A stretch of DNA of 64,000 bases. Origin: an uncultured Desulfobacterales bacterium (GTDB lineage: Bacteria; Desulfobacterota; Desulfobacteria; Desulfobacterales; B30-G6). Shown here one piece after another: positions 20,036-42,382 of this stretch. Position numbers and translations under genes: made by a program. The stretch is from assembly GCA_964633115.1 (NCBI GenBank), contig CAZWEO010000006.1, positions 13,091-77,090 on the forward strand, given 5' to 3'. The notes beneath the pieces were generated by a model. It was not told where the DNA came from, made no database searches, and was given only the letters and a program-made list of their open reading frames with translations. Numbering within the stretch: position 1 is the stretch's first letter; each line of letters begins with the position of its first letter.

Positions 20036-21340
20036 CTAAAGCATTTTGCCAGGTAACCAAAGGGCCAATGAGGGAAACAACATGGTTAGCAAGAGGACAA
20101 TCAGCTGGATAAGGACAAACGGTGGGATGGATCGCCAGATGTCCTTGGTGTGAATTTCAGGCGGGGCCACACCTTTCATTAAAATGAGTGCCCAACCAAA
20201 GGGCGGCGTCAAATAAGCCACTTGCATGTTGAGGATAAAAATGATGGCAAACCATGTGGGATCGAATCCCAACAACACGGCAATGGGAATAAAAATGGGC
20301 GCACAAATGGTCAGGACTGCATAGTCGTCCATAAACATACCGAAAACAAGCAGGATGACTTGCATAACAGCCAGGATTAGCCAGCGGTTAACTGTCAAGC
20401 CTTCAACCAGTTCCATAACCATGTCTTGAGCCCCGGCACTGGTATACACCACCCCAAACAGAGTGGCCGTGACCAGGATCCACAGCGCCATACCGCTAAT
20501 TTTCATGGTTTCCAGGCAAGAATCGGTTAGGACCTTCCACGTTAAGCGTCTGTAGACAATACAAATCACAAAAGATCCAAAAGCACCCACCCCAGCGGCT
20601 TCACTGGGTGTGGCAATCCCCTTAAAAATCGATCCCAATACCAAGACCACCAACATAGCCGGAAGGACAATATCTTTTAAGGACGCCAGCCTGGCTTTCC
20701 AGGTCGTATCTTCAACTGCTTTGGGAGCCAATTCCGGCTGGAGGTAACAACGTACACTGATGTAAATGATATAAAGACTGGCGGTGATCAAACCGGGTAT
20801 GGCGCCGCCAAAGAAAATTTTACCAATCGAAATTCGGGAGATATAGGCAAATATGATCATGATGATGCTGGGTGGAATGATCTCTCCCAGGACACCGCCG
20901 GCCATGACACTACCCAGGGCCAGGGATTTGTCGTAGCGTTGCTTGAGCATCGCCGGCACCGCGATCAGACCCATGGTGAGAATTCCCGGCCCAAACCCAC
21001 CACACATGGCCAGGGCCACACAGACACCCACGGATACAATCGCCAGACCGCCGCGCACACCTGTAAGCCAAAGATTCAGAGCTTTGAATAAACGATCGGA
21101 TATACCCGAATGGATCAAAAAGTTGCCCATTAGGAGAAACAATGGAATTGTGATCAATCCTGGATCCGTAATTTGGCGGTAAGTGGTGGTAGCAACCACA
21201 TAAAGACCATTGGTGCCGTCCAGTAAAGAAATAATCAGTACGCTGATGCCACCCAAGGCAAACACAACTGGAACACCCAACGCCAGCAGAGAAAGAAGTC
21301 CGCCAAATAACAGGACTGTCGACAATCCAATACTCATCAT
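20036..21340 (-). CDS. dctM: TRAP transporter large permease
   Basis: TIPLFLLMG, GEIIPPSI, IATPSEAA and YLTPPFG motifs; highly hydrophobic. Confidence 0.93.
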   Translation of the reverse strand: MMSIGLSTVLLFGGLLSLLALGVPVVFALGGISVLIISLLDGTNGLYVVATTTYRQITDPGLITIPLFLLMGNFLIHSGISDRLFKALNLWLTGVRGGLAIVSVGVCVALAMCGGFGPGILTMGLIAVPAMLKQRYDKSLALGSVMAGGVLGEIIPPSIIMIIFAYISRISIGKIFFGGAIPGLITASLYIIYISVRCYLQPELAPKAVEDTTWKARLASLKDIVLPAMLVVLVLGSIFKGIATPSEAAGVGAFGSFVICIVYRRLTWKVLTDSCLETMKISGMALWILVTATLFGVVYTSAGAQDMVMELVEGLTVNRWLILAVMQVILLVFGMFMDDYAVLTICAPIFIPIAVLLGFDPTWFAIIFILNMQVAYLTPPFGWALILMKGVAPPEIHTKDIWRSIPPFVLIQLIVLLLTMLFPSLALWLPGKML

Positions 21341-21356
21341 ATTGGTTCCTTTTTGA

Positions 21357-21845
21357 TCAATTTAGACGCCGTCGGAAAAAAGATATGCCTTCTAGTAGAA
21401 ACAGAAATGCAACCACCGGTATCAACAATTTAAATGGGTAAAGGGGAATTCGGAAGGCTCCGGGTGCTTTTTCCCGCATCATCAGAGAATTCCAGCCCAT
21501 CCAGCTGGACTGCCAAATCAAAATCCCAATAAAGGCGATAAAGGCGATAAAGGCGATCCAATCGGCAACTTTTTTAAAGCCGGGTGGGAAGTGGTCATAA
21601 AAAATTTCGATACGGATATGCTCGCCCTTGTAGAGCGTATAGGCACCTGCAAACATGATGAAGACGCCGAACAAGATCCGGTTGAGGAGCCATCCCCAGA
21701 GCAAGGGGTGATTGAAGACATATCGCGCGGTTACATCTATGGCCGTTATGGCCATGATGACAAAGACTAAATAGCATACGACGCGACTCGACCGATCGAC
21801 TGCCAGATCGACCCAGTTGCAAATTTTATCAATAATTTGATTCAT
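21357..21845 (-). CDS. dctQ: TRAP transporter small permease
   Basis: DVTARYVFNHP, GEHIRIE; four TMs. Confidence 0.92.
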   Translation of the reverse strand: MNQIIDKICNWVDLAVDRSSRVVCYLVFVIMAITAIDVTARYVFNHPLLWGWLLNRILFGVFIMFAGAYTLYKGEHIRIEIFYDHFPPGFKKVADWIAFIAFIAFIGILIWQSSWMGWNSLMMREKAPGAFRIPLYPFKLLIPVVAFLFLLEGISFFRRRLN

Positions 21846-21878
21846 GCCGGCCGCCTGTAATATAAGTGTGTATACGAC

Positions 21879-21941: not shown

Positions 21942-21945
21942 AATT

Positions 21946-22041: not shown

Positions 22042-23100
22042 TTACAAATTTTTACGCCATTCTTTGATGATCTCAATGGCCTGAGCCGCGGCCGGATCTC
22101 TTTCGCCAATTTTGTCCCAGAGATCATAGGCTGCCACTTCGTGTTGACGATCACAGTCGGCATCTATCTCACTCTTTATGACTTTGCCGGCCTTAATTAG
22201 TTCATCCACTTTCTTCAGTTCGCCCACGTAAACTTTTAGCAGTTTATGGAAATAGTCTTCGGCAGCATCGGCCATGACCTGCTGCAGGTCGGCCGGCAGT
22301 GCATTCCAGGACTCCATATTGAATAGAATATGTCCCACAACGACATCGTTCTGTCCCCCCATGAGCCAATAAGGGGCCACCTCATGCCAATTCAGACCTG
22401 TAATGGCGCTGACATCCCACTGAGAGGCATCAATGGTACCCAACTTCAATCCCATATAGGCTTCCATACCACTGATATAGGTTCCCCGGGCTCCCACGGC
22501 ATTATAATAATCAGCCCAAGACCCTTCCACGCGGAATTTTAATCCCTGCATATCTTCACACGTAAGGATTTTTTTGGTGGACATGGTGATAATGGGGCCA
22601 TAGGAATGGACATCTAACCAATAGAGACCTTGGCTGGCATACTGCTCACGCAGCAAACGCACATAGCCGGTATTAAAAAACAGATTGCGGATCTCTTTCC
22701 CGGCGCTAAAAATATCCGGTTCACCCGGTAAATTATAGGCATAGGGCAGACCAAATTCGACTTCACCAATTGGCAGGATGCCACCCCACATGGCCGCTAC
22801 GGCGTGGACCATATCCAGGGTGCCTTTTTGGGTGGCCTCAAAAAGTTGCTCGGCCGGAACCAGTTCCGGATCGGCAAACACCTGAATCCGGATGCGACCG
22901 TTGCTGTTCTTTTTTGCCGTGGCGGCAAAATCATTCAGCAATTCCATACTGAGATCGCCGCGTGGATAAGCAGACTGAATCTTTAGACGATAAACTTTAT
23001 CGGCAGCTTGAGCGCTAACAGGGGCCATGACCAAGGTAGTGGCAAAAATTGCCGCCAAAATAACAGATAGTAGCAAAATTGTTCGATTCAATTTCATCAC
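22042..23100 (-). CDS. dctP: TRAP transporter substrate-binding protein
   Basis: Signal peptide; LKIQS, GLKFRV and EAYMGLKLGTIDA motifs. Confidence 0.93.
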   Translation of the reverse strand: MMKLNRTILLLSVILAAIFATTLVMAPVSAQAADKVYRLKIQSAYPRGDLSMELLNDFAATAKKNSNGRIRIQVFADPELVPAEQLFEATQKGTLDMVHAVAAMWGGILPIGEVEFGLPYAYNLPGEPDIFSAGKEIRNLFFNTGYVRLLREQYASQGLYWLDVHSYGPIITMSTKKILTCEDMQGLKFRVEGSWADYYNAVGARGTYISGMEAYMGLKLGTIDASQWDVSAITGLNWHEVAPYWLMGGQNDVVVGHILFNMESWNALPADLQQVMADAAEDYFHKLLKVYVGELKKVDELIKAGKVIKSEIDADCDRQHEVAAYDLWDKIGERDPAAAQAIEIIKEWRKNL

Positions 23101-23563: not shown

Positions 23564-23567
23564 TTAA

Positions 23568-23620: not shown

Positions 23621-24040
23621 TTATGTCAGCCGTGTCGTCAAATAAGAACCGATCACCGCATCGGCTTCGATTTCGACCAGATGTTCGGGTCTAGCCAAGG
23701 CTTTAACTTCGGCCATAGTAATTACCGGTCGAATTTGTTTAAACCACTCCGAATACGCTTTAATATATTCCTGACCGCGACTGATATCGGTCACATAAAA
23801 ACGCACACGCACAACGTGGGACATTTTGGCGCCGGCCCGTTTTAAAACCTGCTCTATTTTTTGCAGGATGATTTTGGTTTGTTGGTAAGCATCCCCGGGC
23901 GCTTCGACCTCGCCTTGGGCATTCGTGGTAGTGGTGCCGCCTACAAAAACCATATGACCGACTCGGACAGCCCGGCTGTAGCCGGCCTTTTCTTCAAAAG
24001 GAGCGCCCGAAGCAAAATTTTCTCTTTTTAAAAGTACCAT
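23621..24040 (-). CDS. Rid (YjgF/YER057c/UK114) family protein, Arg-less subfamily
   Basis: GYSRAVRVG, VEIEADA; RPVIT in place of the RidA PAR motif. Confidence 0.88.
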   Translation of the reverse strand: MVLLKRENFASGAPFEEKAGYSRAVRVGHMVFVGGTTTTNAQGEVEAPGDAYQQTKIILQKIEQVLKRAGAKMSHVVRVRFYVTDISRGQEYIKAYSEWFKQIRPVITMAEVKALARPEHLVEIEADAVIGSYLTTRLT

Positions 24041-24750
24041 TATGCCTCGCCAAATTCTTGGGCTATATTATTCAATAAGGTTTGCATCAATTCATACGAA
24101 TCAGGCAATTCAGCCGTTCGAGCCAGAACCGTTGCCCCATCGTGGACATGCGTATCGGACACCCAATCCTGGCTGTGATTGCCGGCATAGAAGCGAACCA
24201 TATCCAAAGTATATTCCGGGTGAAATTGCAAGCCCACAACCGGTCGCTGCCCGCAAACAAAAGCCTGATTTTCAGTGGCCTTGCTACTTGCCAATCGGAT
24301 ACACCCTTTTGGCAGTGAAAAATGATCGCCGTGCCAATGAAAGGTCGTAAAAGAATCGGGTACGTGATCAAAAAGAAATGATGCCCGGCCTTCAGAAGTA
24401 AGCGTTACCTTATGCCAGCCGATTTCCTTGTGTTTTGCGGAAAATATGCGTCCACCCAATGCCTCTGCTATAAGTTGGGCACCAAAACAAAACCCCACAA
24501 CAATCTTTTGGGCCGTCAAGGCTTGCTGTAAAAAGTCTTTTTCCGCTGGGATCCATGGGAAGTTAGCGTTATCCCACGCGTGTTGTGATCCCCCCATGAC
24601 CATTAAGCAATCAAACGAATCCGTTGCCGGTAAGGCCTCACCCTTGCAGATATAGGCTTGCCTTAGCCGGTGATTATTTTCCGACGCCCAGCGCGTTATA
24701 TTGGTGCGCGAAAAATCTTCCGGATCGTGCTCGATCAATTGAATTCTCAT
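24040..24750 (-). CDS. Class I glutamine amidotransferase-like protein (candidate gamma-glutamyl-amide hydrolase)
   Basis: VMGG, GFCFGAQ nucleophile elbow, WHGD, LQFHPE triad. Confidence 0.9.
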   Translation of the reverse strand: MRIQLIEHDPEDFSRTNITRWASENNHRLRQAYICKGEALPATDSFDCLMVMGGSQHAWDNANFPWIPAEKDFLQQALTAQKIVVGFCFGAQLIAEALGGRIFSAKHKEIGWHKVTLTSEGRASFLFDHVPDSFTTFHWHGDHFSLPKGCIRLASSKATENQAFVCGQRPVVGLQFHPEYTLDMVRFYAGNHSQDWVSDTHVHDGATVLARTAELPDSYELMQTLLNNIAQEFGEA

Positions 24751-24754: not shown

Positions 24755-24834
24755 GATGGCTTCGTGAAAAGTCCAATTTCCGTGTCTTGAACAATTTACT
24801 TTGCCCTCCCAATTTGGTTTTTTTCGAACTCATC
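24755..24834. mobile_element. 80-bp MITE-like insertion with 6-bp target-site duplication
   Basis: Termini gatggcttcgtgaaaa...ttttttcgaactcatc, flanked by atacat on both sides. Confidence 0.75.
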
Positions 24835-26287
24835 ATACATTGCTTCCATAGCGGTAGCGCAAATCATCGGTCATCACACAGCGCCGGATACGCGTAAACG
24901 ACTTGGGCCGCGTATGGCCCTCACCATTGGTGGCAATATGAAAGCTGACATAGCCTTCCCCGGTGACACCCACGCCCCCCAAACCACAAGCACCATTTTT
25001 CACAAACGACGCGCAGCTGGCCCGGCTGGCCATCAATTGGATATTGGCCAGGTTTTTGGAATGAATCGCCATGGTGTGACCAAAATTTTGTTCGGCCGCA
25101 ATCGCCCGGTCGATGGCCTCATTCACATCACGGCAGCGCACAAATGGCAGCACCGGCATAATCTGCTCGGTCCAGACCAGGGGGTGCTGATGATCTGTCT
25201 CTAAGATGACAATCTGCACCTCGGGTCCCACTTTCACATCGATTGCACCTAAGATAAATTGGGGAGTTTTACCGATATAGTCCATATTGATTTCCCCGGG
25301 CGTTCCCGCTGCGTTGACCTTTTTAAAAATATGTTTGATTAAGGCTGCCCCTTGCTGGGAACTGATTTCATGGGCACCCTGCTTCAGGAGTTCCTGCTTC
25401 AATTGATCCGCCACCGAATCGACCACGAATATTTCTTTCTCGCTGGCACAGGCGATGCAATTGGAAAAACCGGCACCCTGGATGATGCATTGGGCCGTAC
25501 GCTTTAAATCAGCGGTTTCATCCACAACCACGGGTGGATTGCCCGGTCCACCAGCGATGACGCGCTTACCGGTCTTGGTGGCAAAATCCACGACGCCATG
25601 ACCGCCGGTAACGGCAATCATACCGATATCTGCATGGGTCATGAGCTGCTGGGCGGATGGCACCGAGGGTTCCTCCAGACAACTGAGACAATTCGGGGGG
25701 CCGCCGACGGCCACAATCGCTTGGTTCAGATCGCGAATCACCCGGGCGGACACCTTTTTGGTTTTTGGGTGCGGATTAACCACCACGGCGTTTCCAGCGG
25801 ACATCATCATAATGGCGTTAAAAAGGATACTCGGCGCTGCATTGGTCACCGGGTGTACCGAAGCAATGACCCCTACGGGTAGCCGTTCGATGATGGTGAC
25901 GCCCTTATCGCCGGCAAATACTTCCGGGATTAAATCCTCCAAACCCATCACCTGGCAGGCCGATATGTTTTTATTTACATTATCCACCAGTTTACCCAGA
26001 CCCGTTTCCTCGAACTCCATGCGACCGTAGGTTTCGGCATTGGCCGTACCGGTATCCCGGATGGCCGTGATCACCTTTTCCCTTGTCTCCAAGGGCAACG
26101 CCACCAGAGCTTTCTGGGCCGTCCCGGTTGCCTGAATACAGGTAATCATGTCCTGAAATACACCATTGCCGGAAGCTGTCGCCGGTGCTGCCTCCACAGC
26201 AGTCGTCTTGCTATCCCCATCCATATTAGCCAACTTGCGCACCACCGATTCCACAATCTGATCAATAACTTTGTCGTTTAGTTTCAT
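24833..26287 (-). CDS. BMC CoA-acylating aldehyde dehydrogenase (EutE/PduP family) with N-terminal encapsulation peptide
   Basis: VIDQIVESVVRKL peptide plus linker; PVTN, VTGG, GPGNPP, catalytic Cys in IACASEKE, HTMAIHS. Confidence 0.92.
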   Translation of the reverse strand: MKLNDKVIDQIVESVVRKLANMDGDSKTTAVEAAPATASGNGVFQDMITCIQATGTAQKALVALPLETREKVITAIRDTGTANAETYGRMEFEETGLGKLVDNVNKNISACQVMGLEDLIPEVFAGDKGVTIIERLPVGVIASVHPVTNAAPSILFNAIMMMSAGNAVVVNPHPKTKKVSARVIRDLNQAIVAVGGPPNCLSCLEEPSVPSAQQLMTHADIGMIAVTGGHGVVDFATKTGKRVIAGGPGNPPVVVDETADLKRTAQCIIQGAGFSNCIACASEKEIFVVDSVADQLKQELLKQGAHEISSQQGAALIKHIFKKVNAAGTPGEINMDYIGKTPQFILGAIDVKVGPEVQIVILETDHQHPLVWTEQIMPVLPFVRCRDVNEAIDRAIAAEQNFGHTMAIHSKNLANIQLMASRASCASFVKNGACGLGGVGVTGEGYVSFHIATNGEGHTRPKSFTRIRRCVMTDDLRYRYGSNV

Positions 26288-26393: not shown

Positions 26394-27341
26394 TTAGCCT
26401 GAATTGTCTTTTTCCTTTTGCGGCCACAATGTCGTGATAGTGGCTCGCTCGCGGTAAGCCAATTGTTGATCCATATCATTTTCGGTATAAAACTCATCCG
26501 CAGCTTTTACACCGCGATCAAACTTTGAAATACAGCGCATGGCCTCTTTATTATCAATAAAAGTTATTTCATGAACCAAAGCCCCCAGGAATGCAATCAC
26601 GTGGGCAAAAGGATCCACAAACGAAACCCCTTCAATGTCCAGAACCATGTATTGGTCCGAGAGCGTGATGATGGGTGATTTGGGTGTGTCGCTTAGCCCG
26701 ATTACCTTGACTTTACATTTTTTAGCATACTTCACTATCTCGATAGTTCTACGCGGATATCGCGGGAAGGCGATCGCAACCATCAAGGCATTGGGGCCAC
26801 TCTCAAAAAGAGCATCCATCAACTCCCAGGAAAGATCGGTATTGATAACCACCTGTGGCCGCACTTTTTTTAACAGGTAACCAAAATGGTATGCCAGGGT
26901 CGCTGAGGCACGGTAGCCCACAACAAAAACTTTTTCAGCCCGATGAATCTTACGGGCAATATTTTTAAATTCTTTTTCAGATACAGAGGCCATCAGGTTG
27001 TTCAGATTGTCAATCGCATTCTGGCAATAACTCTGAATGGTTGTTTCGGTATGGCCCTTACGACTGGATCGCCGTAGCCTTTCCGCACTGGTCAGCTCGG
27101 TATGTAGCAATCCTTTCATATATTGCAGGAACTCGGTATATCCGGAAAATCCCATATCAACACTGAAACGGACAATGGTCGGTTCACTCACCTGACATTT
27201 TTCAGCAATCTCCCGCGCGGTCATCAAAAAAATATTCTTGTAGTCATCCATTATCAAATCAGCCACCCGACGCTTCTTGGGAGAAAGCTTGGGATAAATT
27301 TGAGCGATTTTATCAAAGAGATCTTTCTTGGCTGATTTCAT
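26394..27341 (-). CDS. RpiR/MurR family regulator (HTH + SIS)
   Basis: LSPKKRRVA, VSEPTIVRF...GFSGY, FPRYP, LSDTPKSP. Confidence 0.93.
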   Translation of the reverse strand: MKSAKKDLFDKIAQIYPKLSPKKRRVADLIMDDYKNIFLMTAREIAEKCQVSEPTIVRFSVDMGFSGYTEFLQYMKGLLHTELTSAERLRRSSRKGHTETTIQSYCQNAIDNLNNLMASVSEKEFKNIARKIHRAEKVFVVGYRASATLAYHFGYLLKKVRPQVVINTDLSWELMDALFESGPNALMVAIAFPRYPRRTIEIVKYAKKCKVKVIGLSDTPKSPIITLSDQYMVLDIEGVSFVDPFAHVIAFLGALVHEITFIDNKEAMRCISKFDRGVKAADEFYTENDMDQQLAYRERATITTLWPQKEKDNSG

Positions 27342-27383: not shown

Positions 27384-28001
27384 CTAGTGTTCCCTTCCGT
27401 CTAATGCTGCCAACGCCGTCTCCGCCGCCATCTTAGCTGCCTGAATATCAGAGGTCTCACCCGCCAAATAGACACGGCCACTGGCCCCAAAAACACTGAC
27501 ATGATTGATGGTGACCTCAGCGGCTTTCTCGGCCTCATTGGCGGCATAACCTGCATAGCCGGCTGGTACGACTTCCAGAATATAAAGGGTCTCATCACTC
27601 ACGGACATGCTGGCCGATCGAAAACGATTTACAATTTGGCTCATATAGGGATTCAAACGTTCAACTGTCTCGGTCGACAATATCTTGGGTTTGAGACGAT
27701 CGCTTTCTGTACAGCCGATATAGTCTAATATAACCTGGCCGGCTTCCTGGACATCGGCGGGATCGTCCGCATGTACTTCCAGCATGCCATAAGTTCTTTC
27801 CACCACCAATGCGCCAATGCGAACGTTGGCCTTTTTCATAACAGCATCGGTAATGGTGTTGATTTCCATGCCTGGGGCAATCTCGATAAACAGCGCAGCC
27901 TGTCCCGTAACCGGGTAGTAGCCACGCGCGCTGGAGCCGATGTATGCTACCATTTGCTTTTGTAATTGATCGATAAATGCGAACGCTCGGAGGTCTATCA
28001 T
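27384..28001 (-). CDS. BMC-T shell protein, double-stacking (CsoS1D/CcmP-like)
   Basis: LRAFAFIDQLQ, EIAPG, VVERTYGMLEVH, AANEAEKAA, FGASGRVYLAG. Confidence 0.92.
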   Translation of the reverse strand: MIDLRAFAFIDQLQKQMVAYIGSSARGYYPVTGQAALFIEIAPGMEINTITDAVMKKANVRIGALVVERTYGMLEVHADDPADVQEAGQVILDYIGCTESDRLKPKILSTETVERLNPYMSQIVNRFRSASMSVSDETLYILEVVPAGYAGYAANEAEKAAEVTINHVSVFGASGRVYLAGETSDIQAAKMAAETALAALDGREH

Positions 28002-29219: not shown

Positions 29220-29360
29220 TTATTCTCCTAAAATAAAATCGCTGAGCGATTTTATTTGATGCGACTTCGTCGCTAGTATTAATCAAGTCTTTCTGACACT
29301 AAATTTGGATCTACCGATTTATTGGTACATTCCTTGATGTATAGGTTTTAACTCAAGACA

Positions 29361-29486: not shown

Positions 29487-29556
29487 CATTTATCATCATC
29501 AATTTTAAAGCGTGCGAATTTTGTAGCACGACTTAACCATTGGAATCTTAAAATTT

Positions 29557-30269: not shown

Positions 30270-30380
30270 TTATTTTTTTCGCCTGCTAGGCGCAGCCTTG
30301 GCCGGCGCTTTTTTCGCTTGCCCACCTTGAACGGAAGCCTTTTCTGTCGGAATCATCAAATCAATTTCGTCATGCGGCCT
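30270..30380 (-). pseudogene. 3' remnant of a BMC-H shell gene with a Lys/Ala-rich tail
   Basis: Alternate frame reads RPHDEIDLMIPTEKASVQGGQAKKAPAKAAPSRRKK*; compare [11 protein letters not shown] in the BMC-H at 35500. Confidence 0.7.
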
Positions 30381-33324: not shown

Positions 33325-33511
33325 GGGTCCAAGGATCCGAGGATTCAAGGGTTCGAGTGATTTAACTGATAGCCTACAGCAGTAAGCTCTAAGCTTTAAG
33401 CAGCTTAGGGCTGAAAGCTTATGGCTGATAGCAGCCTAACAGTCTAATTGCCTTCAGCCTAAAGGCCTGGTGTTCGCTTGACCCCTTGAACCCTGGAATC
33501 CTTGGATCCTC
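33325..33511. repeat. Palindromic element bounded by inverted 8-bp repeat arrays (second member at 45238-45388)
   Basis: gggtccaa/ggatccga/ggattcaa...ttgaaccc/tggaatcc/ttggatcc with core aagctttaagcagctta. Confidence 0.8.
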
Positions 33512-34841: not shown

Positions 34842-35131
34842 TTTGTTTTTCTGCCAGCCGGTTCAGCCAATTCCAGGTTGTCGGCAATGCCTACTACCAC
34901 CGCATCCACCGGGATCAAGGCACTTTTGTCAAAGGCCTGCATGGCCGGCGCACCCTGAGTCACAATCACCAATTCATCAAATCCGGCCCCGACCTCATCA
35001 GCGGCCACAAGCACATTGCCTTCTGGCTTAAGCGTCTTCCCCAGCGGCTGGATTAACAATAATCGTAAAGCAGAAATTGAGTCCTTCTTTTTAGTGGACC
35101 ATACATTTCCGATCACTTTGGCTAATAACAT
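34838..35131 (-). CDS. eutN: BMC-P pentamer (EutN/CcmL family)
   Basis: MLLAKVIGNVWSTKK, VAADEVGAG, PVDAVVVGIAD. Confidence 0.95.
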   Translation of the reverse strand: MLLAKVIGNVWSTKKKDSISALRLLLIQPLGKTLKPEGNVLVAADEVGAGFDELVIVTQGAPAMQAFDKSALIPVDAVVVGIADNLELAEPAGRKTK

Positions 35132-35177: not shown

Positions 35178-35489
35178 TTATTTCAGATCTTCGGCGTTTT
35201 CAATGGCTGCAATGCTGGCTTCCACATCGGCAATATCACCAAAAATCCCGATCATGGTAATATGTTGCGGACACAGTCCACGCATGTCGAAAACGCGTAC
35301 ATCGCCGGCTTTCTCGGCAACGTCGGCGGCAGCGATCATATCGACCAATTTCCCTTGCACCAGCCCCACAGCCGTGAAGGGAACCTCGGCCTCGGCAAAA
35401 ACTTTTTTGCCGGTCACACCTACACGCTGTCGCAAGAATTCAAAGACACCCGGTGATGGGTGCGAAATTATACGCGTATTCAGTGCCAT
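35178..35489 (-). CDS. GrpU-like BMC-H shell protein (Fe-S binding)
   Basis: RIISHPS, AVGLVQG, AADVAEKA, GxCPQ motif (RGLCPQH). Confidence 0.88.
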   Translation of the reverse strand: MALNTRIISHPSPGVFEFLRQRVGVTGKKVFAEAEVPFTAVGLVQGKLVDMIAAADVAEKAGDVRVFDMRGLCPQHITMIGIFGDIADVEASIAAIENAEDLK

Positions 35490-35499: not shown

Positions 35500-35778
35500 T
35501 TATTCGGCTTGTGGAATCGTAAACTCGATATCGCTGTGCGGTCTGGGGATCACGTGTACGGATACGAGTTCACCCACGCGTTCTGCAGCGGCCCCACCCG
35601 CGTCGGTGGCTGCCTTCACGGCCCCCACATCACCGCGTACAAATACGGCCACCAGTCCGCCACCCACAAATTCGCGTCCAACAAATCGAACCTTGGCTGC
35701 CTTTACCATTGCATCGGCGGCCTCGATGGCGCCAACGATCCCTCTAGTTTCTACCATACCCAATGCGTGCTCTGCCAT
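35500..35778 (-). CDS. Canonical BMC-H shell hexamer (PduA/EutM-like)
   Basis: [40 protein letters not shown]. Confidence 0.96.
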
Positions 35779-36044: not shown

Positions 36045-36554
36045 TTATGACCTAGTTTTCAGTTTAAGCGCGCGGGCCTGCATGGACCACGACCGCGGCA
36101 CTTCGATGGTAACGGTTGCGGTCTGATCCATTTTCTTGGTCTGCCGAACCTTAAGGACGGTGGCATCGCCCAGTTCCCTGCCGGCCCGGTCCAAGGCCGT
36201 CACACTATCACCTTTGGCCGGTAGCGGCCGATATTCATATGGCATCATGACACTGGCCCGGTCATCGGCTAGACTTTCATCGATCATAAATATAGCCTGG
36301 CCCGGGCAGATATACACACAGGTCTGACAGGCCACACACTTATCTTCCAACAGATGGGGAATATTGGTAATGTCATCCCCCACCACAATCGCATCGACGT
36401 TGCAGCTCGATTCACATGGATTACAAGGGATATCCTGCAAACACTCAATGGCCGCCACCGGGCCTTGGCGACGTCTCTTTTCACTGGGCAGACCCGGACT
36501 GTCTTTTAATTCTTCACCCGATAAATATCCAGTAAGCACCGACTCAGGCGGCAT
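36045..36554 (-). CDS. 2x[4Fe-4S] ferredoxin-like subunit of the amine dehydrogenase
   Basis: ECLQDIPCNPCESSC, CVACQTCVYICPGQAI, PYEYRPLP. Confidence 0.88.
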   Translation of the reverse strand: MPPESVLTGYLSGEELKDSPGLPSEKRRRQGPVAAIECLQDIPCNPCESSCNVDAIVVGDDITNIPHLLEDKCVACQTCVYICPGQAIFMIDESLADDRASVMMPYEYRPLPAKGDSVTALDRAGRELGDATVLKVRQTKKMDQTATVTIEVPRSWSMQARALKLKTRS

Positions 36555-37647
36555 GCGTCATTCCTTTCATCACCGCATTTAAATGTTCTTTGGCTTTACC
36601 GCGCACGGAACCGTGACTTCCGCTGCGCATACCGAGCATGCTTTGATATTGTTGCCCGCGTTGTTCCAAAAAGGAGACCTTGTCAATATACCCGAGGCTA
36701 TGGGCGATGGCCAATCCGGCAATGCGACCTTCAATAATTGCGGTACTGGCCTCTTCGATTCCGGCAATATCGCCACCAACGTAAACGCCCTTGATGGAGG
36801 TCTGCATGTTTTTGTCATGCGCCGGAATTTGACCGCCCAGGACCGGTTCGAAACTGGTTTTACAGCCAGCCATCCGTAACAGTTGGGTCATGGGGCTCAA
36901 ACCGACGGCAATACAAATGGTGTCCACATCAAAGCTTTTTTCAGTGCCCACAACCGGCTGCCACGATTCGTCCACTTGAATAATAGTGGCACCCTCGACG
37001 CGATCTTTGCCATGCGCCGCCTTGATGGTATGTGACATCATGAATGGCACCCCAACCCGTGCAATTTTGGCGGCATGTACGGCATAACCGCCGATTTTGG
37101 GTGCGGCATCGATTACGGCTGCAACCTTACAGCCGGCCTGCATCATCTGATAGCTGACGATTACGCCCACATTACCGGAGCCAACCATCAGAATCTGATT
37201 GCCGGGACGGACACCGTGAATGTTGGCCATAGTTTGAGCAGCTCCCGCTCCGATGACACCAGGCAAGGTCCAGCCCGGAAATGGAATCATGTTCTCGGAT
37301 GCGCCCGTGGCAACTAAAATTTTTTGGCCTTGGACATGTTCGATGCGATCACCGATCATGACATTGATACCGCCGTTCTCATAAATACCCAGCACGACTG
37401 AATTTAAAGAGACTTCCACGCCGTGCTTTTGCGCTTCCTCCAGAAAATTACGGCCGATATTGAATCCGCGCTCCTTGGCATGGTGCTCGCGCGATCCGAA
37501 AAACTTGTGAATCTGCTTGAAAAGCTGACCGCCCGGCCGTTCGTTTTCATCAAAAACAATCACCTGAACACCGTTTTTGGCGGCTGCCACGGCCGCGGCC
37601 AATCCAGCCGGACCGGCGCCCACACAAATCATTTCGTATCTACGCAT
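36544..37647 (-). CDS. FAD/NAD(P)-binding oxidoreductase subunit (sarcosine oxidase alpha / HcnB / OoxA-like), no folate-binding domain
   Basis: GAGPAGL, PGGQLFKQIHKFFGS, ATGASE...FPGWTLPGV, GSGNVG, GDIAGIEEAS. Confidence 0.9.
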   Translation of the reverse strand: MRRYEMICVGAGPAGLAAAVAAAKNGVQVIVFDENERPGGQLFKQIHKFFGSREHHAKERGFNIGRNFLEEAQKHGVEVSLNSVVLGIYENGGINVMIGDRIEHVQGQKILVATGASENMIPFPGWTLPGVIGAGAAQTMANIHGVRPGNQILMVGSGNVGVIVSYQMMQAGCKVAAVIDAAPKIGGYAVHAAKIARVGVPFMMSHTIKAAHGKDRVEGATIIQVDESWQPVVGTEKSFDVDTICIAVGLSPMTQLLRMAGCKTSFEPVLGGQIPAHDKNMQTSIKGVYVGGDIAGIEEASTAIIEGRIAGLAIAHSLGYIDKVSFLEQRGQQYQSMLGMRSGSHGSVRGKAKEHLNAVMKGMTHAA

Positions 37648-37650: not shown

Positions 37651-37974
37651 TTACTCCGTGGGCTTGTGCAGGCCTTTGCCCTTTTGGGTTTCAACCACCA
37701 TGCCGGGTTTTAGCGGCTCCACGCAGGTGCGGATGTTTGGCTGCCCATTAACGACCATAATGCAGTCGGTACAACGACCGATGCCGCAAAACATACCGCG
37801 CGGTTCATTTCGGTGGGTTGTGTAACGATGAATCAGGATGCCGTTGCTGCGTAAAGCCATGGCGATGGGTTCGCCCTCAAAACCCGCCATGGATTTACCG
37901 TCAATCGTAAACTGGATCTTAGGGCCTAGTTCAAATTGCCCTAAGATTGGATGCTCATCGATTCGCATGCTCAT
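37651..37974 (-). CDS. [2Fe-2S] subunit (HcnA / sarcosine oxidase alpha N-terminus-like)
   Basis: RIDEHPILG, GEPIAMAL, RGMFCGIGRCTDC, NIRTC. Confidence 0.9.
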   Translation of the reverse strand: MSMRIDEHPILGQFELGPKIQFTIDGKSMAGFEGEPIAMALRSNGILIHRYTTHRNEPRGMFCGIGRCTDCIMVVNGQPNIRTCVEPLKPGMVVETQKGKGLHKPTE

Positions 37975-38127
37975 AATACTTCCCAACCCTAAAAAATTCT
38001 CGCTGTCCAATTAAACCATGGCCATGATTTAATCTTAAAATTTTTCATCTATGCTACTCAAAAGGCCATTGCTGGTATTGAGCGAATTATTGAATTCATG
38101 TTACCTGATTGGTGCCTGTGAAAAATT

Positions 38128-39432
38128 TTAGCAGAAGCCAAACATCTCCCCGAATGTATAATTACTGCCCACCAGGGGGATGCCTGTCATGGCACAGGAT
38201 TCCAGGGTCAGTGATCGCAAATCTTCCCGTTCCAGGCTGCTCAATTTGGTTTTTCCGGCGGCCTTGGCCAATATGGTGGCTTCAATCGTCATGGCTTGGA
38301 TATAATTGGCCACCCGCTGGGCGGCTGCATCAATGTCCAAACGTTTACGCAGTTCCGGATCCTGGGTGCCGATACCAAAGGCACATTTGCCTTCATGGCA
38401 GCGCAGGCAGACCACACACCCCATGGCAATCATGGCACCGGTACCGATCGCAACCGCATCGGCTCCAATCGCCAGCGCCTTGGCTACATCAGCACCATCC
38501 TTGATGCCGCCGGAAACGATCAGGCTGATATCCTCTTTGACGCCCATATCCTCGAGCGAGCGCACCGCTTGTACCAAAGCCGGCAATGTGGGCACCCCCA
38601 GGTTGTTGGAAGCTATTACGGGGGCTGCCCCGGTACCGGCTTCGGAACCGTCGATGACGATGCCGTCCGCGCCGGCCTTAACGGCGATTTTAACATCCTC
38701 CCATACCCGTCCGGCAGCTAACTTAAGAAAAATCGGTATTTCGTTGTTGGTGATATCGCGTAGTTCGTCCATTTTGAGACATAAGTCGTCGGCACCAAAT
38801 ATATCCCCATGGCGTGGATGGCTGTGCAGGTCAATACCCTCGGGTAGCTGACGAAATTCGGCAATCTCCTTGGTGATTTTGCTGGCCATCAAATGCCCGG
38901 AGAGACCAGGTTTGGCACCGATACCCACAATAATTTCCAAGGCATCGGCCGCCTCGATGCTACGCAGTGAGAAACCCATACGGCTGGGTAGAATTTGAAC
39001 CACCTGTTTGTAGGAATTGGCTCGTTCCTCCGGCAAAAGACCGCCTTCGCCATTATTGATGGAGGTGCCCACGATATCGGTGGCCTTGGCCAAGGCGATT
39101 TTGGCTTCTTTACTCAAGGCGCCGTAGGACATGCCGGAAATCATTACCGGGGTTTCAATAACCAGCGGCTTTTTGGCTGTGCGGGCCCCCAGAACGGTCT
39201 GGGTTTGACAATCTTCGCGATAGGTGTCGATGGACATCCGGGTCAGCTGGGAAGGCAGCATCAGCAGGTCATCGAAATTGGGAAACCGTTGCGGCGTCCC
39301 GCAACCCCGGATGCGATGTAAGCCGGTTTCAGCCTTATGCTTTATCTCGGACACGGCTTCCGACATCCACACGCCTCTTTGGACATCTTTGACCCGAACT
39401 TTCTTTTGCTTCTGTTTTTCGTCTTTTGCCAT
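38128..39432 (-). CDS. FMN-binding glutamate-synthase domain protein (MgsC/GlxD-like)
   Basis: GMSYGALS, GEGG, GAKPG, DGSEAGTGA, SGGIKDGADVAKALAIGAD, CxxCxxxxxC. Confidence 0.9.
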   Translation of the reverse strand: MAKDEKQKQKKVRVKDVQRGVWMSEAVSEIKHKAETGLHRIRGCGTPQRFPNFDDLLMLPSQLTRMSIDTYREDCQTQTVLGARTAKKPLVIETPVMISGMSYGALSKEAKIALAKATDIVGTSINNGEGGLLPEERANSYKQVVQILPSRMGFSLRSIEAADALEIIVGIGAKPGLSGHLMASKITKEIAEFRQLPEGIDLHSHPRHGDIFGADDLCLKMDELRDITNNEIPIFLKLAAGRVWEDVKIAVKAGADGIVIDGSEAGTGAAPVIASNNLGVPTLPALVQAVRSLEDMGVKEDISLIVSGGIKDGADVAKALAIGADAVAIGTGAMIAMGCVVCLRCHEGKCAFGIGTQDPELRKRLDIDAAAQRVANYIQAMTIEATILAKAAGKTKLSSLEREDLRSLTLESCAMTGIPLVGSNYTFGEMFGFC

Positions 39433-39438
39433 TATCCC

Positions 39439-40134
39439 CTACCTCACCTGCTTATGGGTTGGTTTGAATAGCACGTACTCGTGCCGCCCGACGACTTTGG
39501 GAACGATGCTTTGAAAGGCACCAACATCCTGCTTGATCCCGTATTTAGCAAACAAGGCGTCCAGCTTTTTTTGCTCGTCCGGTGCTATGGGAATTAACCT
39601 GACATTGCCGCCCAGTTTATCCCCGACAGCCGGATCCAGCACGTGTATGATGCCGCCGTACATGGATTCGCCAATGCCTTCGCCCACTTCACCCAGGACA
39701 ACAATCCGTCCTCCCAGGGTCATCTTTCCGGTCCAGCGCCCCACATTGCCACAGACAATCAAATTGCCGCCCTTCATACCCCAGCCGGCGCGACTACCGC
39801 TATTACCCATGACCACAATGGTGCCCCCAACCATGGATGGAGCCACGTTACTACCGGTGTTCATTTTCACCACAATTTCACCAGCCATCATGTTATCACC
39901 TGTATACCAACCGGTATTGCCCTTGATGGTCAGGCAGGGGCCTTCCAGGAAACCGCCGGTATAAAAGCCGGTGCTGCCGTTGATGGTAATGGTAGCATTT
40001 CCGATCAAGGCCGTGGCAAAGTTGTGCATAGAGTGCGGATTGTCGATCTCAATCTGGTCTTCCGTCTTTATCATTGCCTTGAGCTGGACGTTTACCTCAC
40101 GCGAATTTTGCGCTTTAATATCTAAACGGGCCAT
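39439..40134 (-). CDS. GXGXG beta-helix protein (MgsB/GlxC-like)
   Basis: Gly-rich repeats GSTGFYTG, GNSGSRAGWGMKGG; ATG at 40134 overlaps the upstream gene end. Confidence 0.88.
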   Translation of the reverse strand: MARLDIKAQNSREVNVQLKAMIKTEDQIEIDNPHSMHNFATALIGNATITINGSTGFYTGGFLEGPCLTIKGNTGWYTGDNMMAGEIVVKMNTGSNVAPSMVGGTIVVMGNSGSRAGWGMKGGNLIVCGNVGRWTGKMTLGGRIVVLGEVGEGIGESMYGGIIHVLDPAVGDKLGGNVRLIPIAPDEQKKLDALFAKYGIKQDVGAFQSIVPKVVGRHEYVLFKPTHKQVR

Positions 40135-41021
40135 ACCTTTACGCCTCCTGGATCCATCTCCGTGGCGTACACATCGGAGACAATTGGGGTTAAACAAATT
40201 TGTTCGGATCCCAAAAGTACTGTCGCGCCCTCCTGTTCATAAAACAGCATGGGTTTGATCCCCAGTTGGTCCCTCAGTGCCCCGACCTGTTTGCCAGTGC
40301 TGACCAACAGGGTAAATACACCATCAAACGTTTCCAGGCCCTGATAAAGCGCCGCTTCCAGGTCCAGACCCTTTTCTTTCATCTGATAAGCCAGAAAATG
40401 CACCGCCATCTCAGAATCGTTGTTGGTTTTGAAGCGAATGCCCCAACTCTCCATTTTGCGACGCATGTTAAAATAATTGGTGAATTGGCCATTATGCACA
40501 ATGGCCAGTTCGGGCATTAGATAGGAAACAAACGGGTGCGCAAAATTAATATTTTCGACACTTTCCGTGGCCAGTCTCACATGGCCGATCCCATGCGACG
40601 CTGCCACCGCAGGGATTTGATGTGTTTTTTGGAGATCTTCGGCCGAGCCCTCATCCTTATAGACCTTGATCTGTTGGCCGATAGAATGCACGCACAGTTG
40701 CGGGTGGCTGTCAATTTCCCAATGCAGCCTTGGCATTTCAGCGGCATCCATATCAATGCTGGCTTCAAAAAAATGGAATACACCCTGTCCGGAATAGCTG
40801 CGCGGTGCTGCCATGGTCCCAAATTTCTGAATATAGTTTTCCAAGTCAGGTTGGTATTCAGCCGAAGTTAAGGATACGCGCAGATCAATGGCATCCCGCT
40901 TTTCGTAGACCGCCACGCCGGTGGCATCCCGTCCCCGGTGAATGAGTTGCTTTAACATGTCGATTAAGCCATTGCCCTGGGTTGCTGATTCCCCGGCAAT
41001 AAAGCCTGCAATACCACACAT
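40122..41021 (-). CDS. Class II (Ntn) glutamine amidotransferase (MgsA/GlxB-like)
   Basis: MCGIAG, HRGRDATG, GHVRLATES, AHPF, VHNG, NDSE. Confidence 0.9.
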   Translation of the reverse strand: MCGIAGFIAGESATQGNGLIDMLKQLIHRGRDATGVAVYEKRDAIDLRVSLTSAEYQPDLENYIQKFGTMAAPRSYSGQGVFHFFEASIDMDAAEMPRLHWEIDSHPQLCVHSIGQQIKVYKDEGSAEDLQKTHQIPAVAASHGIGHVRLATESVENINFAHPFVSYLMPELAIVHNGQFTNYFNMRRKMESWGIRFKTNNDSEMAVHFLAYQMKEKGLDLEAALYQGLETFDGVFTLLVSTGKQVGALRDQLGIKPMLFYEQEGATVLLGSEQICLTPIVSDVYATEMDPGGVKVWPV

Positions 41022-41041
41022 AGCTTACCTCCTATTCAAAT

Positions 41042-42382
41042 TTAGAGGTGATAGGCATACTCATTGAATTCCCAATCGGTGACACTAGTTCGGAAACGTT
41101 CGACTTCATGTTCTTTGAGAGCCAAATAAGCCTGAACCAACTCAGGTCCCAGGGCTTCACATAAAACCGTGTCGGCTTTAAAATCCTCAAGCGCGTTTTG
41201 CAGCCAAAAAGTTACCGTTTCCAAGCTACCCGGTTCGGCCCCGTAGACATCATCGGGTGCTGGTTCACCTGGGTCTATCTTATTTTTGATACCGTCGAGG
41301 CCGGCGGCTAACATGGTCGCTATGGCTAAATAGGGATTAGCTGATGCACATGGCGCCCGATTTTCCACCCGCGTGGCCTGACCGCGTTCGGCCGGAACGC
41401 GGCAGTATACGGTACGATTATCCCAGCCCCAAGCCAGGTAAAATGGGCAAAAGTTGCCCAACACAAAGCGGCGGTAGGAATTAATGGTCGGTGACATGAT
41501 CGCTGCCATGCCCCGAGCATGCGCCATTTGCCCACCCAAAAAATAACGCAGCAGGTCGGAGACACCATCGGCAGCGGCCGGGTCGTCAAACAAGTTTTTA
41601 TTGGACTCGGGATCATTTAGCGACGCATGCAGATGATAGCCACTGCCACCGTTATCGGTTTTGGGACGCCCCATAAACGTCAACAACAAGTCGTTTTGGG
41701 CGGCTACTTCCTTGCAGACATACTTAAAGGTAAAAGACTGGTCTGCCATTTTAAGCGCCCGGTCGTGTTTCCAATTAACCTCAAATTGTCCTGGAAAGAA
41801 TTCATGATTGATATAAATGATGTCCAATCCAAGCTCGATAAAGAGATTCTGAAATCGCCGCATCATGCCTTTGGGATCGACAACCGGATTAACCTGATAG
41901 ACACACGAAGGACTGGCGTTATACACCTCGCCATCGGCTTCGCCACCCTGGTTAAAAAGGAAAAATTCCAGTTCGGATGCCACAATGGGATCCAGGTTTA
42001 GATCTTGATATTGCTTGATTATGCCTTGCAACACATAGCGGGGGTCCATGGCCAATGGTTGGCCGTCATGCCCAAAGGAATTTCCTATGAATCTGGCAGT
42101 GCCATCCAAATATGGGAGTACGGTAAACGTATCCGGATCTGGTTTGATGGTCATATCACGCCATTGAATTTCGTCACAGAGACCACTGCCCATGGCAATA
42201 TCATTGGCTAAATCGACGGAATAGGTGGCGGTCACATGGTTGCAACCTTCCTCCAGAACCGCTTCAAGTCGACTGGCCGGTACAAGCTTGCTGCGGCAGA
42301 TCCCATGTAGATCCGGAAAATCAATCCGCAACGAATCAATATCGGCTGCCTTAATTTGTTCCTGAATCTCTTTTACTTCCAT
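41042..42382 (-). CDS. Glutamine synthetase-like gamma-glutamyl-amine ligase (GMAS/PuuA-like)
   Basis: DLHGICRSKLVPA, ELEFFL, HEFFPGQFE, GSGYHLH, RVENR, NPYLA; flap GNFCP lacks the GS Glu of GYEAP. Confidence 0.9.
   Translation of the reverse strand: MEVKEIQEQIKAADIDSLRIDFPDLHGICRSKLVPASRLEAVLEEGCNHVTATYSVDLANDIAMGSGLCDEIQWRDMTIKPDPDTFTVLPYLDGTARFIGNSFGHDGQPLAMDPRYVLQGIIKQYQDLNLDPIVASELEFFLFNQGGEADGEVYNASPSCVYQVNPVVDPKGMMRRFQNLFIELGLDIIYINHEFFPGQFEVNWKHDRALKMADQSFTFKYVCKEVAAQNDLLLTFMGRPKTDNGGSGYHLHASLNDPESNKNLFDDPAAADGVSDLLRYFLGGQMAHARGMAAIMSPTINSYRRFVLGNFCPFYLAWGWDNRTVYCRVPAERGQATRVENRAPCASANPYLAIATMLAAGLDGIKNKIDPGEPAPDDVYGAEPGSLETVTFWLQNALEDFKADTVLCEALGPELVQAYLALKEHEVERFRTSVTDWEFNEYAYHL

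Follow-up and report, generated by a model that had tools for sequence, protein, structure and literature searches.

A conserved metabolosome locus of uncultured Desulfobacterota that may oxidise an amine by way of gamma-glutamylation

The window analysed here is a stretch of 64,000 nucleotides from an uncultured Desulfobacterales bacterium (contig CAZWEO010000006.1), and its positions 20036-42382 hold 25 open reading frames (ORFs), all on the minus strand according to a program-made ORF list, that form a locus for a bacterial microcompartment (BMC) of the metabolosome kind. Protein families were assigned by Pfam and NCBIfam profile scans, with E <= 0.001 as the threshold for family absences. 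From 42382 downwards, the genes encode a ligase resembling glutamine synthetase (GS-like), the glutamate-synthase-like subunits GlxB, GlxC and GlxD, a Fer2_4 protein, a Pyr_redox_2 protein, a 2x[4Fe-4S] protein, a BMC-H protein and a second single-domain BMC protein. These are followed by BMC-P, a PduS-like protein, a PduT-like protein, EutJ, a 272-aa protein, a CcmP-like protein, a BFD + SO_alpha_A3 protein and a DAO-family dehydrogenase subunit. The order ends, at 20036, with a second CcmP-like protein, an RpiR-family regulator, an aldehyde dehydrogenase (AldDH), a class-I glutamine amidotransferase (GATase), a Rid-family protein and the DctP, DctQ and DctM components of a transporter of the tripartite ATP-independent periplasmic (TRAP) type. 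A previous sequence-only reading of this DNA had described one co-oriented locus with six shell genes, PduS, EutJ and an acylating AldDH, accompanied by a GS-like ligase, three glutamate-synthase-like subunits and a sarcosine-oxidase-like (DAO) dehydrogenase. The profile scans bear out all of these components. The claim that B12 lyase, glycyl-radical lyase and aldolase are lacking stands as well, since 0/25 locus proteins match the families of B12 lyases, glycyl-radical enzymes, aldolases, phosphotransacylases or alcohol dehydrogenases. Genes that the sequence-only reading had not listed are those for Fer2_4, the Pyr_redox_2 protein (similar to the middle part of SoxA), the 2x[4Fe-4S] protein, BFD + SO_alpha_A3, RpiR, GATase, Rid, the TRAP transporter DctPQM and the 272-aa protein.

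The shell genes, five of PF00936 type and one of PF03319, are interspersed with the enzyme genes, which is the composition expected of a metabolosome shell. Together with the electron-transfer and accessory proteins they are as follows.

35500..35778, minus strand: BMC-H shell protein, 92 aa (PF00936, 95.2 bits)
35178..35489, minus strand: second single-domain BMC protein, 103 aa, with a 39-aa N-terminal extension (PF00936 over residues 40-99, 34.1 bits, cut-off 24.5)
34838..35131, minus strand: BMC-P pentamer (vertex) protein, 97 aa (PF03319, 91.3 bits)
33510..34841, minus strand: PduS-like flavin/Fe-S electron-transfer protein, 443 aa (Complex1_51K, SLBB, Fer4_17, RnfC_N)
32699..33259, minus strand: PduT-like tandem BMC-T protein, 186 aa, with Cys42 (two BMC domains; TIGR02526, E 1.6e-41)
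31881..32711, minus strand: EutJ, 276 aa (NF011660, 311.8 bits, cut-off 182)
30356..30982, minus strand: CcmP-like tandem BMC-T protein, 208 aa (NF053796, E 4.6e-68)
27384..28001, minus strand: second CcmP-like tandem BMC-T protein, 205 aa (NF053796, E 7e-70)

The PduS-like protein is close to the rnfC and PrdC models, and both CcmP-like proteins score below the equivalog cut-off of NF053796. The Cys of the PduT-like protein is invariant in 28/28 sequences and lies where PduT holds its cluster; taken with the presence of PduS, this residue suggests that electrons may be exported through PduS and the Cys-bearing PduT-like protein. In many relatives (L001 and others) the first CcmP-like gene is separated from the BFD gene by a third BMC-H gene, 65-74% identical to the BMC-H of the window; this third gene is missing in the window and in L005, L008, L009, L012, L017, L026 and L029. 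The genome is of 5.8 Mb and 94% complete, and the locus is the sole BMC locus found in it. No match to EutB was obtained in this genome. A complete metabolosome core would include a phosphotransacylase and an alcohol dehydrogenase; with neither in the locus, the core is 'incomplete' in the terms of the BMC catalogue.

The arrangement of this locus recurs in related bacteria. A scan for GlxD, with one genome per species, returned 32 loci at 78-98% identity, and all the carriers (32/32) are metagenome-assembled genomes (MAGs) of Desulfobacterales, Desulfobacteraceae, Desulfatiglandales, Desulfarculia or 'delta proteobacterium', one of them belonging to the Olavius-associated Delta 1 bacterium, a symbiont of a gutless worm. 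Shell and enzyme genes stand in the same order beside GlxD in 28/32 loci, the remaining four contigs end before the shell position, and none of the 32 loci shows GlxD in a differing gene context. Because the arrangement recurs in 28 loci and the other four contigs are too short, the gene association is far beyond chance and the locus represents a real, conserved metabolosome type. Synteny of the GS and Glx genes with shell genes in relatives, which the sequence-only reading had set as a test, holds wherever the contig is long enough and survives even the rearrangement found in a Desulfobacula MAG. In that genome the genes stand in a different order, GlxBCD being flanked by shell genes and the GS-like gene adjoining two AldDH copies, and the gene set is kept; the DAO half was found on another contig, one end of which fits the first contig. 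The downstream regions of five further carriers all contain RpiR, AldDH, Rid and the TRAP genes. Among 401 genomes sampled evenly across the phylum, seven (the genome of the window included) have a GlxD of at least 76% identity, and the next-best GlxDs, at 50% and 49%, lie in canonical glxBCD-soxDAB-glnT clusters of the N-methylglutamate (NMG) pathway.

At the head of the locus lie the ligase and the three Glx subunits.

41042..42382, minus strand: GS-like protein, predicted gamma-glutamyl-amine ligase, 446 aa (PF00120, 333 bits)
40122..41021, minus strand: GlxB-like class-II (Ntn) amidotransferase subunit, 299 aa, starting MCGIA (GATase_6/7)
39439..40197, minus strand: GlxC-like GXGXG subunit (PF01493)
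38128..39432, minus strand: GlxD-like FMN glutamate-synthase-domain subunit, 434 aa, containing a motif of four Cys (PF01645, 342.7 bits)

The ligase falls below all NCBIfam equivalog cut-offs (GlnA, 313 against 429; type III/GmaS, TIGR03105, 306 against 469.6; PuuA-type, 271 against 650) and is 33% identical to GlnT of R. etli. The window protein was aligned with 23 orthologues, GlnA and PuuA of E. coli and the two other GS-family proteins of its own genome; the residue numbering was checked against E. coli GlnA, which shows the expected residue at each position. The residues for metal, glutamate and ATP (E129, E131, E212, E220, H269, H271, R321, R339, R344, E357 and R359) are retained in 24/24 ligases, and D50, S53, Y179, N264 and E327 are replaced in 24/24 by V/A, T/I, V, G and F, respectively. 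D50, S53, Y179 and E327 are, in E. coli GlnA numbering, the residues that bind ammonium. The substitutions are of the same kind as those of E. coli PuuA, in which the catalytic residues are kept and the ammonium site is gone. A GS fold with catalytic residues and without the ammonium site is the combination expected of a gamma-glutamyl(methyl)amide synthetase, and the residues needed for ammonia assimilation by glutamine synthetase and glutamate synthase (GOGAT) are missing. Plasmid neighbourhoods of GS-like proteins at 36-37% identity gave no usable hint of the substrate.

The three following subunits correspond, all in order, to those of the three-subunit N-methylglutamate synthase (GlxB/MgsA, GlxC/MgsB, GlxD/MgsC). 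Compared with the plasmid glxBCD of R. etli, which belongs to the N-methylglutamate cluster soxBDAG-glxA-glxBCD-glnT-purU, identities are 48% for GlxD, 32% for GlxB and 30% for GlxC. An MCG(I/V)A start occurs in 24/26 GlxB orthologues, and the catalytic Cys1 is conserved. The true start of GlxC is probably Met22, at 40134, because the alignment with R. etli GlxC begins at residue 22. In all GlxDs of the shell-linked type (32/32) a CxxCxxCxxxxC motif is found at the position of the cluster motif of glutamate synthase. This motif was considered as a hallmark of the shell-linked type and was dropped, as several canonical-type GlxDs from metagenomes, encoded beside soxBDA and glnT, share the Cys; in these the four Cys are kept but split by an insertion, and R. 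etli GlxD has none of the four.

The retained Cys motif of GlxD and the position of true glutamine synthetases (8oow, E 2e-74) as the nearest relatives of the ligase with a solved structure would suit an ordinary GS-GOGAT system, in which GS and a split glutamate synthase assimilate the ammonia set free by a deaminating oxidase in the compartment. This explanation is highly improbable and was rejected on the active-site residues of the ligase, D50, S53, Y179 and E327 being replaced throughout. Moreover, the genome encodes elsewhere a canonical GS and a GltB (1549-aa frame), and the GlxD of the locus is 28% identical to that GltB as compared with 48% to the NMG-type GlxD.

The flavin/Fe-S dehydrogenase is encoded by five genes on both sides of the shell genes.

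37651..38010, minus strand: 2Fe-2S subunit (Fer2_4), 119 aa, resembling HcnA or the N-terminus of SoxA (PF13510, 95.5 bits; soxA positions 15-99)
36544..37647, minus strand: FAD/NAD(P) Pyr_redox_2 protein, 367 aa, corresponding to the N-terminal half of a SoxA/HcnB-like alpha subunit that is split (TIGR01372 soxA positions 171-500)
36045..36554, minus strand: 2x[4Fe-4S] ferredoxin-like subunit, 169 aa (Fer4 families)
29557..30243, minus strand: BFD [2Fe-2S] + SO_alpha_A3 protein, 228 aa, C-terminal half of the split alpha subunit (PF04324, PF17806)
28014..29219, minus strand: DAO-family catalytic beta subunit, 401 aa, its C-terminal tail rich in Cys (PF01266, 242 bits)

The four Cys of the 2Fe-2S subunit are present in 27/31 orthologues, and the 2x[4Fe-4S] protein has eight invariant Cys. 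The relatives of the Pyr_redox protein in the PDB are 2gag_A (SoxA) and 1y56_A, and the BFD/A3 protein matches positions 485-597 of the SoxA model. The best solved relative of the DAO subunit is 1y56_B (E 1.8e-54), far ahead of the SoxB chains (about E 6e-23); 1y56 is the L-proline dehydrogenase complex of Pyrococcus. None of the 25 locus proteins contains a SoxD, SoxG or GCV_T (folate-binding) domain, and the folate-binding alpha subunit of the four-subunit, SoxBDAG-like N-methylglutamate dehydrogenase is thus lacking. The enzyme is predicted to be a dehydrogenase of the HcnABC, proline dehydrogenase (PDH) or opine-oxidase type with its alpha subunit split in two, and is not an orthologue of the NMG dehydrogenase. 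Sarcosine oxidase and NMG dehydrogenase pass the aldehyde to tetrahydrofolate; the window enzyme would be expected to release it free, because a folate-binding domain is absent. A paralogous trio, Fer2_4 / SoxA-like / DAO, contiguous and unsplit, is found on contig C68 of the same genome (L057:3098-15631). This trio adjoins a trans-4-hydroxy-L-proline dehydratase (1227 bits, cut-off 1100) and an activase-like gene (362 bits, below 425).

The aldehyde would meet an AldDH that bears an encapsulation signal, and a 272-aa protein of the locus has a similar N-terminus.

24833..26287, minus strand: CoA-acylating AldDH of EutE/PduP type, 484 aa, bearing an encapsulation peptide at the N-terminus (NF011927, 505.8 bits, cut-off 403)
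31053..31871, minus strand: 272-aa protein with an N-terminal helix like an encapsulation peptide and a C-terminal 48-aa module (weak match to TIGR02536 eut_hyp, E 1.8e-10)

Solved relatives of the AldDH are the PduP-like structures 5jfl_A and 4c3s_A, at about E 3e-93, and its N-terminus has a conserved amphipathic helix followed by a variable linker in 7/7 sequences, as expected of an encapsulated AldDH. The 272-aa protein has no Pfam match even at E 5 and no sequence relative in the PDB (best E 0.24). Its C-terminal 48 residues match the N-terminal 48 of the BFD protein (hhalign 91.7%, E 7.8e-7), which begins with this module, a linker and a conserved helix of encapsulation-peptide type between variable linkers. 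Conserved amphipathic helices beside poorly conserved linkers are therefore present on the AldDH, the 272-aa protein and the BFD protein, and a helix with a variable linker is the usual form of encapsulation peptides. The DAO subunit ends in a Cys-rich tail (27 codons, 28014-28094, end ...CPNKREWLKSI) that is conserved in shell-linked orthologues and could either coordinate a metal or cluster or tether the enzyme to the shell. A metagenome contig without a shell gene, L077, carries GlxD, Fer2_4, Pyr_redox, Fer4, BFD, DAO and RpiR in one row, and its proteins are 63-88% identical to those of the window, or 71-75% in the comparison of the extensions; its BFD protein is without the N-terminal module and helix, and its DAO without the Cys-rich tail. 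Because these extensions go with the shell and are missing in L077, they would mark the dehydrogenase as cargo, and from such features we infer which enzymes are luminal.

This bears on the suggestion that the signature enzyme is encoded elsewhere and that the amine genes of the locus are accessory. The genome has four glycyl-radical enzymes and a single shell locus, and two of these enzymes, CutC-like and adjacent to each other (984 and 1012 bits, cut-off 1050), lie on contig C8 (L056:3919-12488) by an MttB-superfamily methyltransferase-like gene, a group that suggests choline or quaternary-amine metabolism as its possible role. Such a satellite enzyme is very unlikely to serve the shell, given the shell-specific extensions of the dehydrogenase, and it was rejected as signature enzyme for lack of conservation: no close orthologue exists in the five other carriers, in which the best identity is 41-43% and G001 and G003 give no match at E <= 1e-100.

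Further evidence came from loci of metagenomes. A scan of these returned standard shell-linked loci (L059, L061, L062, L064, L066, L068, L070 and L081) and a divergent shell-linked one, L079, in which an APC-type permease lies between the GS-like gene and GlxB. Two others, L076 and L099 (GlxD 77%), are shell-less and contain the GS-like gene, GlxBCD, Fer2_4, a full-length Pyr_redox protein (489-492 aa) and a 572-aa DAO. The DAO of L076, the one that was scanned, carries a C-terminal 2x[4Fe-4S] (Fer4) domain, and this fusion therefore ties the Fer4 protein of the window to the dehydrogenase. Directly upstream and on the same strand, L076 has genes for S-(hydroxymethyl)glutathione dehydrogenase (FrmA; 720 bits against 544) and S-formylglutathione hydrolase (FrmB; 415 against 282), and in L099 an AOR-like gene follows the DAO. 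One core of ligase, synthase and dehydrogenase thus appears to be joined to three solutions for disposal of the aldehyde, namely a shell with AldDH, glutathione-dependent formaldehyde enzymes and an AOR-like enzyme. A FastTree of GlxD, with distant paralogues as its root and given without support values, places the shell-less forms within the shell-linked clade, which is sister to the canonical NMG clade; the label 'BMC' in this tree was set by at least 78% identity, and some such contigs are too short to show the context.

The remaining genes of the locus encode the transporter, a regulator and two accessory proteins.

22042..23100, minus strand: TRAP solute-binding protein DctP, 352 aa, with the conserved R190 (PF03480)
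21357..21845, minus strand: TRAP small membrane subunit DctQ (PF04290)
20036..21340, minus strand: TRAP large membrane subunit DctM (PF06808)
26394..27341, minus strand: RpiR-family regulator (HTH_6 + SIS by Pfam; kept in G001-G005)
24040..24750, minus strand: class-I glutamine-amidotransferase-like protein, 236 aa (PF00117)
23621..24040, minus strand: Rid-family protein, 139 aa, without Arg105 (PF01042)

The TRAP transporter is present at the locus in all six carriers examined. The class-I GATase-like protein is possibly a gamma-glutamyl-amide hydrolase, and its gene is variable in position or absent in relatives. The Rid protein scores 65.8 on TIGR00004, for which the cut-off is 106.25.

The explanation that best accounts for these genes, and that we hold with moderate confidence, is a conserved metabolosome that oxidises an amine by way of gamma-glutamylation, an N-substituted glutamate, a free aldehyde and acyl-CoA. 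We infer all the chemical steps of this scheme from the proteins encoded. The amine would be taken up, probably by the TRAP system, and coupled with ATP to the gamma-carboxyl group of glutamate by the PuuA/GmaS-like ligase. GlxBCD, the counterpart of MgsABC, would turn the gamma-glutamyl amide into an N-substituted glutamate. Inside the shell, the dehydrogenase composed of DAO, split alpha, 2Fe-2S and 2x[4Fe-4S] subunits would oxidise the N-substituent to give glutamate and free aldehyde, which the encapsulated EutE/PduP-type AldDH would convert into acyl-CoA. Electrons would exit via the Fe-S subunits, PduS and the Cys-bearing PduT-like shell protein. The sequence-only reading had proposed the route from alkylamine over N-alkylglutamate and aldehyde to acyl-CoA, and in outline this stands on the active site of the ligase, the 48% identity of GlxD, the synteny, the missing folate domain and the disposal enzymes of the sister loci. 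Its details fared less well: the dehydrogenase belongs to another branch of the family, the ligase lies under every equivalog cut-off, and the conserved Arg of DctP speaks against plain alkylamines.

Several observations weigh against this scheme. The DAO subunit is 25% identical to SoxB, and the identification of the dehydrogenase as N-methylglutamate dehydrogenase fails on this value, on the missing SoxD and SoxG and on 1y56_B as best relative. The DAO/SoxB-type family also oxidises proline, hydroxyproline, opines and glycine. Relative to R. etli, the GS-like, GlxB, GlxC and GlxD proteins have no terminal extension, and a luminal location is not indicated for them. In the Rid protein the residue equivalent to Arg105 of E. 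coli RidA is replaced, by Ala in 5/6 and by Cys in 1/6 sequences; this Arg, which holds the carboxylate of the 2-imino acid, is the mark of RidA imine deaminases. Recycling of CoA and NAD is left unexplained by the gene set, because phosphotransacylase and alcohol dehydrogenase are missing from the locus and PF06130 (phosphotransacylase) has no match in the 94%-complete genome. The FrmA/FrmB neighbourhood was found in one locus only (L076). Finally, a divergent shell-linked locus, L075 (20-19131), has AldDH, Peptidase_C26, GlxBCD, Octopine_DH, Amidohydro_3 and a LivK-type ABC transporter, whereas genes for a GS-like protein or DAO are absent within 10 kb; L075 may represent another compartment type, related to that of the window.

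To these is added the transporter. In alignments with PDB structures, the Arg of the motif KFR(190)V of DctP aligns with the Arg of two carboxylate binders and with a Phe in the ethanolamine binder 4uab, and of all Arg columns that of R190 is the best conserved across 14 paralogues of the same genome. According to a study of the family, the ethanolamine binder Csal_0678 is without an equivalent of Arg-147, and 96.8% of the family members have the Arg (PMC4646407). This carboxylate-selecting Arg argues against import of plain methylamine, ethylamine or ethanolamine by the predicted binding protein. Because the Arg is conserved and the TRAP system occurs in all six carriers, an acidic substrate is the plain reading, and the comparison points to an amine that would also bear an acidic group. 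Ethanolamine was rejected as the substrate, despite a parts list like that of the Eto operon, as DctP has Arg where 4uab has Phe. On contig C84 of the genome, near 14703, another paralogue of the binding protein has Phe for the conserved Arg and is locally much like 4uab; the genome may also hold an ethanolamine-type TRAP system there.

A DctP with the carboxylate Arg fits N-substituted amino acids, and one alternative is that an imported secondary amine or imino acid (an opine, sarcosine, another N-alkyl amino acid, proline or hydroxyproline) is oxidised directly, while the ligase and GlxBCD only salvage the primary amine released. The kinship of the DAO subunit to 1y56_B, part of the Pyrococcus proline dehydrogenase complex, agrees with this, and so does L075, which has an Octopine_DH-family gene and neither GS-like gene nor DAO within 10 kb. 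We consider direct oxidation unlikely nonetheless. The GS-like and GlxBCD genes form the head cluster in every locus long enough, and they make up, with the HcnABC-type trio, the shell-less L076 and L099 too, a strict linkage that salvage fails to explain. The same order of enzymes is the entry route of the canonical NMG pathway.

The opposite possibility, that the amine stays gamma-glutamylated throughout as in the Puu and Eto pathways, draws on the ligase, whose site pattern equals that of PuuA, and on the overlap with the ethanolamine gamma-glutamylation operon (RpiR, TRAP, GS-like, AldDH and amidohydrolase; PMC10132767). The other part of the molecule would then be oxidised by DAO and AldDH, and the class-I GATase-like hydrolase would free the glutamate. 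This protected-amine route is improbable. A search of the extended regions gave no GATase-like gene in G002 and G004, and that of G003 is placed outside the cluster; GlxBCD, present in all loci, would be left without a role, the DAO groups with multi-subunit SoxB/PDH-type enzymes that need alpha and Fe-S subunits, and DctP differs from the ethanolamine binder at the key position.

Within the preferred scheme of ligation, N-substituted glutamate and free aldehyde, the identity of the amine is the point on which the evidence conflicts. The type of pathway and the formaldehyde enzymes of L076 point to methylamine and formaldehyde as the likely pair, in conflict with what the transporter indicates. 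The sequence-only reading had named methylamine or ethylamine; the FrmA/FrmB pair beside the sister locus L076 favours methylamine, and the carboxylate Arg of DctP is against both. A formaldehyde metabolosome of uncultured relatives of sulfate reducers, the gutless-worm symbiont among them, in which anaerobic methylamine oxidation via gamma-glutamylmethylamide and N-methylglutamate, or oxidation of a methylamine moiety from an acidic carrier, leads to free formaldehyde within the shell that is trapped as formyl-CoA, is accordingly a tentative and rather doubtful proposal.

As to the organisation of the locus, promoter-like sites show no excess in the locus scan (29, compared with 24.2 +/- 4.0 in shuffles), terminator-like sites number 35 (22.7 +/- 5.6 in shuffles) with none clearly placed, and Rfam gave no match at E <= 0.1 over window 19000-46000. 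An AT-rich gap of 337 nt, 29220-29556, with a short tandem CGATGTT-like repeat inside it, separates the BFD gene and DAO, and contains a short hairpin and T-run immediately before the ribosome-binding site of DAO, so that the genes may be transcribed as more than one unit. Directly downstream of DctM, at 14563-19877 on the minus strand, are genes for a multi-PAS hybrid histidine kinase of 1188 aa, a response-regulator protein and a PilZ protein; the equivalent regions of other carriers gave no such set. On the other side, at 42547-45158 on the plus strand and divergent from the GS-like gene, lie a cytoplasmic-looking molybdopterin oxidoreductase (720 aa), for which the scores of the PhsA and Fdh-alpha models are about equal and both below cut-off, and a 4Fe-4S subunit (150 aa). 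This pair adjoins the locus in 5/20 flanks (the window, L008, L016, L028 and L032), and no gene beyond the GS-like gene is conserved across the 20 flanks.

Comparison with described systems places the locus between several of them. It shares with the N-methylglutamate pathway (GmaS, MgsABC, MgdABCD) a GS-like ligase without ammonium site, three subunits derived from glutamate synthase in the same order and a flavoprotein of the SoxA/SoxB superfamily. It differs in having a dehydrogenase of HcnABC/PDH-like type with a split alpha subunit, additional Fe-S proteins and no SoxD, SoxG or folate domain, in a ligase that is under the type III/GmaS equivalog cut-off, and in the coupling to a shell, acylating AldDH, PduS and TRAP system in carriers that are probable anaerobes. 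With heteromeric SoxB-type dehydrogenases (archaeal PDH 1y56, HcnABC, opine oxidases and D-hydroxyproline dehydrogenase) it has in common the DAO beta subunit, the Pyr_redox alpha subunit with BFD and the small 2Fe-2S protein, whereas the window has its alpha subunit divided between two proteins, an additional 2x[4Fe-4S] protein and shell-specific extensions on the BFD half and DAO. Common with PuuABCD and the Eto operon are the PuuA-like active-site pattern and the accessory set of RpiR, TRAP, aldehyde dehydrogenase and amidohydrolase type, but the Puu and Eto (PMC10132767) pathways have no GlxBCD, no shell and a non-acylating AldDH, and the Eto TRAP binder is without the Arg that the window's keeps.

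Among metabolosomes, the EUT, PDU, GRM, PVM, SPU and RMM types and the MIC and MUF types of unknown function, as far as the main text of the catalogue covers them (Sutter et al. 2021, PMC8217296), share with the locus the BMC-H/-T/-P shell, an AldDH with N-terminal encapsulation peptide, PduS, a PduT-like protein and EutJ. Unlike those types, the locus is without B12 lyase, glycyl-radical enzyme, aldolase, phosphotransacylase and alcohol dehydrogenase, and the candidate for its signature enzyme is a flavin/Fe-S amine dehydrogenase that would receive its substrate from a ligase and a glutamate-synthase-like enzyme. The enzyme families of the locus go unmentioned in the main text of the catalogue; its supplementary locus lists (MIC, MUF) lay outside the search, and prior cataloguing is possible there. 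The searchable literature yielded no description that links shell genes to these enzymes, and as far as that literature goes this metabolosome type is undescribed.

If the scheme is true, a shell around a flavin/Fe-S amine dehydrogenase would be a new class of compartmentalised chemistry. To our knowledge, characterised metabolosomes all form their aldehyde by a B12 enzyme, a glycyl-radical enzyme, an aldolase or, in RMM, an amino-alcohol route. The scheme would moreover assign a role to one of numerous BMC loci listed as of 'unknown function' or 'incomplete core', and would represent an anaerobic variant of the logic of the N-methylglutamate pathway, with physical confinement in place of the hand-off to folate. 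The natural series of a shell with acylating AldDH, glutathione-dependent formaldehyde enzymes and an AOR-like enzyme offers a comparison for asking why aldehydes get enclosed. The substrate matters for the cycling of nitrogen and carbon in anoxic sediments, because the carriers comprise bacteria common in sediments and a symbiont of an animal. Should the formaldehyde reading be true, this would be the first one-carbon metabolosome, and sulfate reducers would compete for methylamines, which are usually deemed substrates of methanogens.

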